Below are positions 26,625-28,826 of a stretch of 50,669 bases of DNA, piece by piece. The DNA is taken from assembly GCA_045564035.1 (NCBI GenBank), contig JBJLIA010000039.1, positions 1 to 50,669 of the forward strand, in the 5' to 3' direction. Under the pieces are notes generated by a model that did no database searches, was not told where the DNA came from, and saw nothing but the letters and a program-made list of their open reading frames with translations. Positions within the stretch are counted from its first letter, which is position 1; every line of letters begins with the position of its first letter. A program made the position numbers and the translations under genes. This stretch comes from Gammaproteobacteria bacterium. GTDB lineage: Bacteria; Pseudomonadota; Gammaproteobacteria; Magnimaribacterales; D2472.

Positions 26625-28826
26625 CTATGAAGCGGCTAACTTAAGCGCTTCTTTCACATCAACAGATACCACACGAGAAACTCCTGCCTCCTGCATGGTG
26701 ACTCCCATCAAATGATCGCTTTTCTCCATGGAGATTTTATTATGAGTAATAAATATAAACTGGACTCTATCCGACATCTCTTCAACCATTGCTACAAACC
26801 TCGTGGCATTTATATCATCTAAAGGCGCGTCAACTTCATCCAACATACAAAATGGAGCTGGGTTTAGTTCAAATAATGCAAACACCAATGAAAGCGCAGT
26901 CATGGCTTTTTCTCCCTCCAGAAAGTTGAGAAATAGTTGCATTTTTTTTACCAGGAGGTTGAGCGGTGAGCGTAATTCCTGAATCAAAAGAATCGCCATC
27001 CATTAAATGCAAAGCAGCTTTGCCTCCACCAAATAGTTTCGGAAAAATCTCCTGTATTTTTGAATTTACAGCATTAAAACTCTCGTCAAACTTCATCTTA
27101 GATTCTGCATCTATTTTTTTAATAGCGCTTTGAAGCTTGTCCAAAGCTTCATTTAAATCCTCCAGCTGAGAATCGAGTTCATCGATGCGTTTTGATTCTT
27201 CAGCAATTTCATCCGGAGCAGCTAAATTAATGGCTCCTAATGAAATAATAGAGGACTGAGTTGAGGCTAACGACGACTCTAGATCCAAAAGATCGATGGC
27301 TTCATAATCTCCAGGGTGAAGGTCCGAAATTGAGATTCCAGCTTTTTTTAGTGTCTCTGAGGCATTATCCAGGTTAACTTCAAACGTCCTGAGATCAAGC
27401 TTTAAATCATTGAGTTTTTCTTCCAACGCGCGAAGATCTAAAGCAGCGACAGATTTTTTGTTCTCAACATCTTGAATCGACGCATCTACAACAGATTGTT
27501 TTTGGCGAATTGAGTTTAATTCTGATTCTGCAGTAGAGCTTTTTTCGACCAGGGCCGCCAAGTCATTTTCTGCCTTCAACTTATTTTCCTTTGCTTGACC
27601 TAGTTGTTCTGAAATTTCATTCTGTCTGAGCAAATATTCGTTTGTTATATTTTTAGATTGTGCTGAGGGGTAATCTGCAGAATACTGATTAATAAGTCTT
27701 TAAGCTCAGCCGCTTTGCTGCGAATACTTTCTGCGCTGGGACCAAAATCTTTGAGGCCCTCTGAAATAGCATCTAGCAATTTCATTGCTTTTTCTTTTGG
27801 GCTTAGATTTTCTATGCTGGATTCATTGTTTAAAGCTTCTGCATATCGCTCTTTTGCTCTGGTTAAACCCTCTTCATAACCAAGTATTGCCTTATTCATG
27901 TTTTGAAGGTTAGTTTCATGTCTAGCTATTTCTGAACCAATGGTGTAAAAATTCTTTTGGGCAACTTCAAATGCAGACAATACAGAAGCATGCTCCGTCT
28001 TAATTTGATCAATCGATGCTTGATGAGTGTTCACTTCTGCAGATTTAACATTAACCTGATTGCTGAGCTGAGATATTTTTGAACTTAAAGAATCTTTTTT
28101 CGCTTTCGCGCTTAAAGTATTTAAAATTGAAATTTTTAATTTGAGATCTTTTTCTTCAATTTGAAGTTTTTTATACTTTTCTGCAGCTTTGGCCTGGTTT
28201 TGCAAGCGATTAATTAATCTTTGAATTTCGTCCCTAATATCTTTGACTCTCGCCAGATTTTCTTTAGTTTTTTTAATTCTTTGCTCTGTTTCTTTTCTTC
28301 TTTCTTTGTATTTAGAAATTCCCGCTGCTTCTTCAATGAAGACTCTCATGTCCTCTGGTTTGGCGCTTACTATTTTTGATACCATGCCCTGCTCAATAAT
28401 GGCGTAACTTCTTGGTCCAAGACCTGTACCAAGAAAAATATCTTGAACATCTTTTCGCCTGCATCGAGTGTTATTCATAGAATAATGAGACTGACCGTCT
28501 CTAGTCATCATTCTTTTTATTGAGATTTCATTATATTTAGCGTATTCACCGCCTAGTTTGCCCATTGAATTATCGAATAAAAGTTCAATGCTGCATTGGC
28601 CAGATGGCTTTCTTAAATCCGAACCATTAAAAATAACATCAGACATGGATTCACCACGTAAGTTCTTTGCAGATAGCTCCCCGAGAACCCATCGAACGGC
28701 ATCAATAACATTAGATTTACCGCATCCATTAGGACCAACTACAGCCACCATATTTGTAGGGAAAGATATCCTCGTGGGATCCACGAAACTCTTGAATCCA
28801 GCCAGTTTGATGTGTTTAAGCTGCAT
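26625..28826 (-). CDS. smc: Chromosome segregation protein SMC, short form (~733 aa when joined across two compensating frameshifts near 27668 and 26915)
   Basis: GFKSF, Walker [11 protein letters not shown]-loop IIEQG, FIEEAAG; C-terminal [43 protein letters not shown]. Confidence 0.88.

Follow-up and report, generated by a model that had tools for sequence, protein, structure and literature searches.

The window analysed here, the whole stretch of 50,669 nt, is contig JBJLIA010000039.1 of a Gammaproteobacteria bacterium from the order Magnimaribacterales, whose draft genome (G000) consists of 49 contigs and is 69% complete. The window carries an smc gene on its minus strand. As the original prediction had read it, the gene spans 2202 nt, from an ATG at 28826 to a stop codon at 26625-26627. 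In this assembly it is split over three open reading frames (ORFs), all on the minus strand. The first (28826-27645, 393 aa) contains the N-terminal half-head, the N arm and the apex. The second (27633-26869, 254 aa) lies in a different frame and covers the C arm as far as LSGG. The third (26999-26625, 124 aa) returns to the first frame and runs from EKAMTAL through Walker B to the C-terminus.

The predicted SMC-type half-heads were found at both ends of the gene with their motifs complete. The N-terminal half-head (residues 1-169; 28320-28826, minus strand) begins at the start codon at 28826, contains Walker A ([13 protein letters not shown]) and matched Pfam SMC_N over residues 3-139 (E 1.2e-33). 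The C-terminal half-head (residues 599-732; 26625-27030, minus strand) contains LSGGEKA, Walker B ([11 protein letters not shown]) and the H-loop THN, and matched positions 139-219 of the SMC_N profile (E 3.9e-24). Walker A, LSGGE, Walker B and the THN H-loop were all invariant columns in order-wide alignments. Between the half-heads lie three helical parts on the minus strand. The N-terminal arm helix (residues 170-339; 27810-28319) has a short break at 240-243, and AlphaFold2 modelled it as helices 170-239 and 244-339. The apex module (residues 340-394 in intact-orthologue numbering; 27643-27809) is all-helical, stands in place of the hinge and extends from LSPKEKA to just before YLxRQN. The C-terminal arm helix (residues 395-598; 27031-27642) is in the +2 frame in this assembly; AlphaFold2 placed helices at 343-494, 512-529 and 536-598 and breaks in the C arm at 495-511 and 530-535 ([11 protein letters not shown]). 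Directly 3' of smc lies zipA (26015-26623, minus strand; Pfam ZipA_C, E 3.1e-16), followed by ligA for the NAD-dependent DNA ligase (23856-26015, minus strand; DNA_ligase_aden E 1.8e-94, with OB, HHH_2 and BRCT), so the smc-zipA-ligA locus was identified correctly. The smc-zipA order also adjoins full-length smc in both gammaproteobacterial loci compared (L061 and L069), with ligA next in one of them (L061).

The original prediction had stated that this SMC lacks a hinge, a Gly-rich motif and a CXXC hook, and all three absences were observed. A hidden Markov model (HMM) search with SMC_hinge (PF06470) gave no match in the gene pieces of the window or anywhere in the 69% complete own genome, nor in any of 11 orthologues at E<=1. 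We then surveyed the order in 151 genomes of at least 80% completeness, 57 of them high-quality, from 21 genera and four families. SMC_hinge was found in none of the 151, the 57 high-quality genomes included, which is the outcome that had been expected of the hinge search. Of 201 genomes of the class, 160 had SMC_hinge, for the most part within frames of 1166-1240 aa; this tally takes in the unpublished genomes G277 and G200. As a positive control, the hinge model matched all three of the nearest full-length relatives at residues ~522-623. Neither GX6GX3GG nor CXXC occurred in any of 30 orthologues, and the apex is without any Cys. In the AlphaFold2 model of the 732-aa protein, residues 170-598 were alpha-helix only. 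A second smc was not found in the 57 high-quality relatives. These results indicate that the hinge is absent from SMC throughout the order.

We next examined whether the protein is an SMC orthologue. Four intact orthologues (732, 995, 822 and 733 aa), each matched in at least two stretches, were scored against family models. All four passed the cut-off of TIGR02168 (SMC_prok_B), with 822.0, 853.7, 815.1 and 728.5 bits against 567.35. The recN, recF, sbcC and Rad50 models gave 19-51 bits against cut-offs of 172-1087; recN (TIGR00634) scored 34.6 bits (cut-off 407.85), sbcC 18.7 bits (478.5) and the Rad50 models 37-51 bits (700-1087). SMC_N half-heads were present in all 11 orthologues. In an exhaustive HMMER search, the nearest homologues outside the order were SMCs of 1150-1180 aa with 38-51% identity. 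The top matches of the AlphaFold2 model among solved structures were the prokaryotic Smc head, coiled coil and joint (5xei, E 7.5e-27; 5xns; 5xg3; 5h68). These results indicate that the sole SMC condensin subunit of the organism is encoded here, and that its form is the usual one across the order.

The short form was conserved among relatives, as a check for intact orthologues of ~730 aa had anticipated. Of the 13 short-form loci from the same genus, 12 contained an intact 732-aa ORF and the remaining one was cut by a contig end. With the 732-aa protein as the query (E<=1e-30), an smc match was obtained in 143 of the 151 genomes of the order. Among the matches listed, the open frames fell into classes of ~727-747, 810-843 and 995-1010 aa, and none was near 1150 aa. 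A search of 5.8 billion proteins yielded, among the matches listed, many relatives of 732, 707 and 995 aa from marine metagenomes, and PF06470 was found on none of the 120 listed metagenome relatives. The claim that the shortening is not a random deletion was therefore borne out by a conserved short form throughout the order. The orthologues carry public names such as 'AAA family ATPase' and 'recombination protein RecF' (for example P0014, P0077, P0111 and P0275) or 'chromosome segregation protein'. Under the first two of these names, automated surveys may overlook smc and count it as missing from such lineages.

To locate the missing part, the short SMC was aligned to three full-length SMCs of 1165-1171 aa. 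Residues 1-332/356 corresponded to residues 1-332/364 of the full-length proteins, and residues 421-730 corresponded to 854-1163 (in one case 372-731 to 809-1170). A conserved LGAINLAA break lies at residue 529 in the short SMC and at 962-968 in the full-length SMCs. The region absent from the short form thus extends from ~335/365 to 810/853 and comprises the hinge together with the distal half of each arm, ~450-520 residues, in whose place stand ~90 helical residues for which no similarity to other sequences was detected. In the 732-aa form, 429 residues lie between the half-heads, ~214 per strand compared with ~340 per strand in a canonical arm, and only ~163 and ~178 arm residues can be aligned to the ancestral arms. 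The predicted shortening of both arms was therefore seen in the alignments, in which the head-proximal halves are retained and the distal halves are missing.

The length classes are related by internal duplication. The 995-aa form (for example L023:1350-4337, minus strand) corresponds to the 732-aa form plus two internal repeats. In the N arm, residues 233-350 are repeated at 353-470 with 57/118 identities (Smith-Waterman score 277; shuffled sequences 66 +/- 8), and in the C arm, residues 524-659 are repeated at 667-802 with 68/136 identities (score 340; shuffled 50 +/- 9). BLASTP self-comparison of the 995-aa form showed no repeats; they were detected by Smith-Waterman alignment with shuffled controls. 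The duplications add 120 aa to the N arm and 143 aa to the C arm, with their junctions at the apex borders, and bring the protein to ~346 residues per strand, near the usual SMC arm and still hinge-less. The form of 995-996 aa (L023, also L150-L159) was observed in some of the species that share the genus of the window organism, and in several genera besides. A quick maximum-likelihood gene tree of 30 proteins (IQ-TREE) followed the genera and mixed long and short forms, requiring at least three changes of state. That both strands changed in step is an argument for selection on a closed geometry with paired arms.

The apex was then compared among the orthologues. At its start, LSPKEKA, residues P343, E345 and A347 were invariant and S342 and K346 nearly so. 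Further along, L375, L379, I385 and Q389 were invariant, and the end of the apex precedes a conserved SxQSKxxTxEYLxRQN. A deletion of five residues at 359-363 (KDFGP) in 5 of 18 aligned sequences accounts for the 727-aa forms, and it is here too that the longer forms in other families carry their additional residues. The content of large hydrophobic residues in eight sequences was 0.35-0.37 in the two apex helices and 0.25-0.27 in the arms. Bookkeeping of strand lengths favoured a reversal of the chain at ~359-366, which pairs N-strand residues 244-361 with C-strand residues 367-494, and 170-239 with 512-598. The full-length 732-aa protein was modelled with AlphaFold2 from a 20-row alignment (predicted local distance difference test, pLDDT, 78; predicted template modelling score 0.51), and a model of segment 244-494 had a pLDDT of 92.5. 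A register with the reversal at 340-342, taken from AlphaFold2, was not accepted, as it left the strands ~56 residues unequal. The original prediction of an amphipathic helical hairpin at the apex agrees with the indel hotspot and the arm bookkeeping, and it departs from AlphaFold2, which puts the turn ~20 residues earlier. The 81-aa apex sequence matched only designed helical proteins among solved structures (E 0.18-0.26). A fold search with the segment model returned only generic long helical hairpins, from chemoreceptors and from Smc arm fragments (5xg2, 5nnv), none with E below 3.6e-4. When two copies of residues 244-494 (alignment A2) were put to dimer prediction, the scores were 0.18 and 0.23, compared with a mark of 0.42, and weigh neither for nor against the RecN-like apex dimerisation proposed in the original prediction.

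To examine the two frame breaks, the window gene was aligned with intact genes from six congeners, to which it is 81-89% identical in nucleotides. Break 1 is an insertion of 2 nt in a CCCC run (27667-27670, minus strand) at codon 386, at the apex edge, after which frame 0 reaches a TAA at 27647-27645. Break 2 is an insertion of 1 nt in a G run (26913-26917, minus strand), between the LSGG and EKA of the signature, which returns the reading to frame 0. The original prediction had placed a single frameshift at the apex; the one at the apex edge was observed, and the second one, inside LSGGE, had been missed. Against all six congeners, the window smc had exactly three gap columns, 27669-27670 and 26917, and the columns 27669-27670 were also seen against genomes G001 and G003. 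Over 20.3 kb aligned to G001, the smc breaks alone were unpaired indels that break a coding frame of the window; there were two further unpaired events, a +1 between genes at 30491 and a difference of 1 nt at 31004 in ccmF, whose frame is intact in the window. Public metagenome contigs from four runs, one from each of four studies, were also aligned over 26500-28900. The two bases of break 1 were missing from all covering contigs (depth of contigs without them over total depth 14.5/14.5, 6.9/6.9, 17.5/17.5 and 33.8/33.8 in the four runs), as was the base of break 2 (12.4/12.4, 16.1/16.1, 35.6/35.6 and 33.8/33.8). Some of these contigs were near-identical to the window, with 2 differences in 172-411 nt. 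Among the matches listed for the order, G000 was the sole entry with an internal stop in smc. Both breaks are therefore private to this assembly, being missing from six of six congeners and from every near-identical covering contig. The most likely cause is sequencing or assembly error in homopolymer length; a lesion that arose very recently in the sequenced cell is less likely. The concern about an assembly artefact that had been raised earlier was thus justified for the frame breaks and not for the short length.

Selection on the gene was estimated from eight intact genes of the same genus by the Nei-Gojobori method. The ratio of nonsynonymous to synonymous substitution rates (dN/dS) was 0.048 for the whole gene, 0.017-0.018 for the half-heads (N half-head 0.018, C half-head 0.017), 0.07-0.08 for the distal arm strands and 0.144 for the apex, values that are rough because dS was saturated (1.2-1.8). 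The partners of a condensin were also sought. Intact scpA (264 aa) and scpB (187 aa) genes lie side by side on another contig of the own genome (C32), which answers the check for scpAB that accompanied the original prediction. ScpB was present in 138 of the 151 genomes of the order and in all 57 high-quality ones; ScpA was examined in the own genome. ParB_N was present in the own genome and MukB was not found there. With intact orthologues across the order, scpA and scpB retained and a dN/dS of ~0.05, the earlier reading of a streamlined hinge-less condensin is supported.

The surroundings of the gene were also inspected. Upstream of smc, ORFs of 127, 151, 632, 137 and 58 aa (29641-33011, minus strand) resemble, judging by their translations, a ccmH/G/F/E/D cytochrome c maturation cluster. 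The difference at 31004 lies in ccmF (30540-32438, minus strand), where G001 is off by one base in a T run and the window ccmF is intact (632 aa). It may represent a homopolymer error or a frameshift in G001, and it suggests that these draft genomes contain errors of this type. A 284-aa ORF (28853-29707, minus strand), placed between smc and the ccm genes, has no Pfam match at E<=0.001; it is conserved in the same place in G012 (L023:4364-5218), and its N-terminus appears hydrophobic. Elsewhere in the window, ORFs of 171 and 155 aa (42860-43375 and 43305-43772, minus strand) overlap by ~70 nt in different frames. No unpaired indel was seen there in the relative G003, so the overlap is probably a genuine arrangement and not an assembly break.

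We consider it likely that the gene encodes the order-standard SMC condensin, in which the distal arms and the hinge have been replaced by helix and which still works with ScpAB, and that the breaks in the window are errors. The head and the head-proximal half of each arm would have been inherited from an ordinary gammaproteobacterial SMC, and the distal arm halves and the globular hinge would have given way to ~90 residues of simple alpha-helix closing the arm. The protein may then work as Smc-ScpAB: ATP would drive the engagement of the heads, the kleisin would bridge them and loading would depend on ParB/parS, on arms of probably ~0.6x normal length. What joins the subunits might be the helical tip (~340-394), which is conserved and more hydrophobic, or else alignment of the arms together with the kleisin. 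By analogy, this seems plausible because the hinge of B. subtilis Smc could be swapped for the Rad50 zinc hook with function retained (PMC5344682). Several points weigh against this reading. Both AlphaFold2 models reversed the chain at 340-342 and made one helix of ~342-494, with strands ~56 residues unequal, and this turn disagrees with the tip position given by the 359-363 indel and by the bookkeeping. The dN/dS values, at saturated dS, are rough. The contigs compared came from public metagenomes, which leaves room for a real lesion in the one cell sequenced, and two breaks in one gene, totalling +3, with none elsewhere in 20 kb, are somewhat unexpected for random error. As the own genome is 69% complete, a second smc in its unassembled part is conceivable for G000.

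Several other explanations were weighed. Because the genome is a fragmented draft, the short length could be the product of an assembly collapse or a deletion of an ordinary hinge-containing smc of ~1170 aa. The same length classes recur in 143 of the 151 genomes of the order, closed or near-closed ones included, and in hundreds of independent metagenome proteins and contigs of four separate studies, and SMC_hinge was found in none of the 151; this explanation is effectively refuted. It is also very improbable that the protein is an SMC-like paralogue of the RecN, SbcC/Rad50 or RecF class with a function in repair. Some source names do say 'recombination protein RecF' or 'AAA family ATPase', and the length is nearer to RecN or SbcC than to SMC. 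The TIGR02168 cut-off was passed and those of the repair families were missed by far, full-length SMCs are the nearest homologues, the gene sits at the smc-zipA-ligA position, no further smc was found in the order, and ScpAB is kept. A genuine, very recent pseudogene is less easily dismissed, although we regard it as unlikely. In that case the insertions would be real slippage events and the cell would make only a 393-aa fragment of head plus arm, which would fit the presence of both insertions in a single gene with no further frame-disrupting indel in 20.3 kb against G001. Contigs at least 99% identical over both sites, from four studies, are without the insertions, the out-of-frame middle piece is still open over 254 codons and matches relatives, both events are length changes of G/C homopolymers, a common type of error, and smc is intact in every other listed genome of the order.

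The last alternative accepts a functional short SMC and concerns how its subunits are joined. The protein may have no constitutive dimerisation at the tip, so that two subunits are joined only by ATP-engaged heads and ScpA, possibly with arms side by side. The complex would then lack an SMC compartment closed by a hinge and act as a head/kleisin clamp instead of a long ring. This arrangement, which we hold to be possible but less likely than not, would account for the lack of a recognisable dimerisation domain, CXXC or Gly motif. It is also consistent with an apex that shows the weakest constraint in the gene (dN/dS 0.144) and whose sequence could not be aligned from one family of the order to another. 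Purifying selection nonetheless acts on the apex, which has invariant residues and raised hydrophobicity within the family, and the changes of arm length in matched pairs suggest that a closed two-armed geometry matters. Moreover, every functional B. subtilis construct described in the engineering study kept a dimerisation module (PMC5344682).

A similar form was observed outside the class. Three Pelagibacter/Pelagibacteraceae loci (L077:3001-5445, L089:3001-5397 and L091) matched the query end to end in ~2.4 kb, with ORFs of 814 and 798 aa and no SMC_hinge at E<=0.1. Five Pelagibacterales genomes (G363-G367) all contained SMC frames of 805-864 aa and all contained ScpB. PF06470 was found in none of 101 Pelagibacterales genomes, a result for which the HMM may be weak in Alphaproteobacteria, as the control gave no match in Caulobacter; length is the firmer evidence here. 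The SMC of Pelagibacterales (SAR11) resembles the present one in its length of 798-864 aa, the lack of a detectable hinge, the retention of ScpB and its occurrence in a streamlined marine lineage. It differs in having only 30-32% identity and an apex of unrelated sequence. Since this identity is below that to full-length gammaproteobacterial SMCs, the truncations were probably independent. We tentatively propose that a hinge-less Smc-ScpAB is normal in at least two streamlined ocean lineages of independent origin, in which the tip is a new minimal dimeriser or the arms, heads and kleisin suffice, and in which the arms have been re-tuned by matched duplications. If this is true, SMC function in nature can dispense with the hinge.

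The hinge is viewed as a defining part of every SMC, for constitutive dimerisation, DNA binding and possibly as a DNA gate. A whole order of abundant marine bacteria, and apparently also SAR11, that has discarded the hinge and half of each arm while keeping ScpAB, ParB and a constrained head offers a natural test of which SMC parts are required. The 732-aa family provides small, naturally evolved constructs for structural work, and the paired arm duplications form a natural series on which arm-length rules can be tested.

The canonical bacterial Smc (TIGR02168; B. subtilis, and gammaproteobacterial proteins of ~1165-1171 aa) shares with the present protein Walker A, LSGGE, Walker B, the D-loop and the H-loop, a head-proximal coiled coil with joint-like breaks, the presence of ScpA, ScpB and ParB, the smc-zipA-ligA synteny and a passing equivalog score. 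The short SMC differs in having no hinge and 732 instead of ~1170 aa. RecN and Rad50/SbcC likewise combine an ABC-type head with a coiled coil whose closure involves no globular SMC hinge, and RecN dimerises via its coiled-coil apex. The present protein differs from them in scoring far below their family cut-offs, in the absence of CXXC and in its partners, which are ScpAB and not Mre11/SbcD.

A hinge-less oceanic SMC is already in print, for a lineage that is different or at least carries a different label. A small but very abundant 'hinge-less' SMC cluster without CXXC was reported from the OM-RGC ocean metagenomes, annotated as Actinomycetes (Actinobacteria) and with an unknown host lineage (Environ Microbiome 2025;20:65; PMC12153180). 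That cluster, as described there, is like the present family in its SMC head, antiparallel coiled coil, lack of hinge and CXXC, abundance and wide spread in the ocean and absence of a canonical smc alongside. It is unlike it in the Actinomycetes label, which contrasts with the gammaproteobacterial affinity of the present SMC; the main text of the paper provides neither sequences nor lengths for the cluster (PMC12153180). In that paper, SAR86 and Pelagibacter have 0 occurrences each, and ScpAB, synteny and arm-length classes were not analysed (PMC12153180). In the literature searched, no description of a gammaproteobacterial or SAR11 hinge-less SMC was found. The family presented here is thus a new lineage of a barely described kind, and what is new is its order-wide distribution, the orthology by HMM score and synteny, the retention of ScpAB and ParB, the length classes, the paired duplications and the parallel in Pelagibacterales.

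The closest functional comparison is with engineered proteins. In B. subtilis, Smc remained functional with the Rad50 zinc hook in place of its hinge, and it worked only at certain arm lengths (Mol Cell 2017;65:861; PMC5344682). The same study gives natural arm-length modes of 238, 341 and 515 residues, with minor ones at 163 and 423, from a survey seeded with hinge alignments that would have missed hinge-less proteins (PMC5344682). The engineered Mini-Smc and Smc(zinc-hook) constructs show that shortened arms and a non-hinge dimeriser suffice if the arm length fits; each of them still has a defined dimeriser, be it the hinge or the zinc hook of Rad50, and no such module is recognisable in the present SMC (PMC5344682). 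With this difference, the natural loss of the hinge mirrors the Mini-Smc and zinc-hook constructs, and the present family looks like their natural counterpart.

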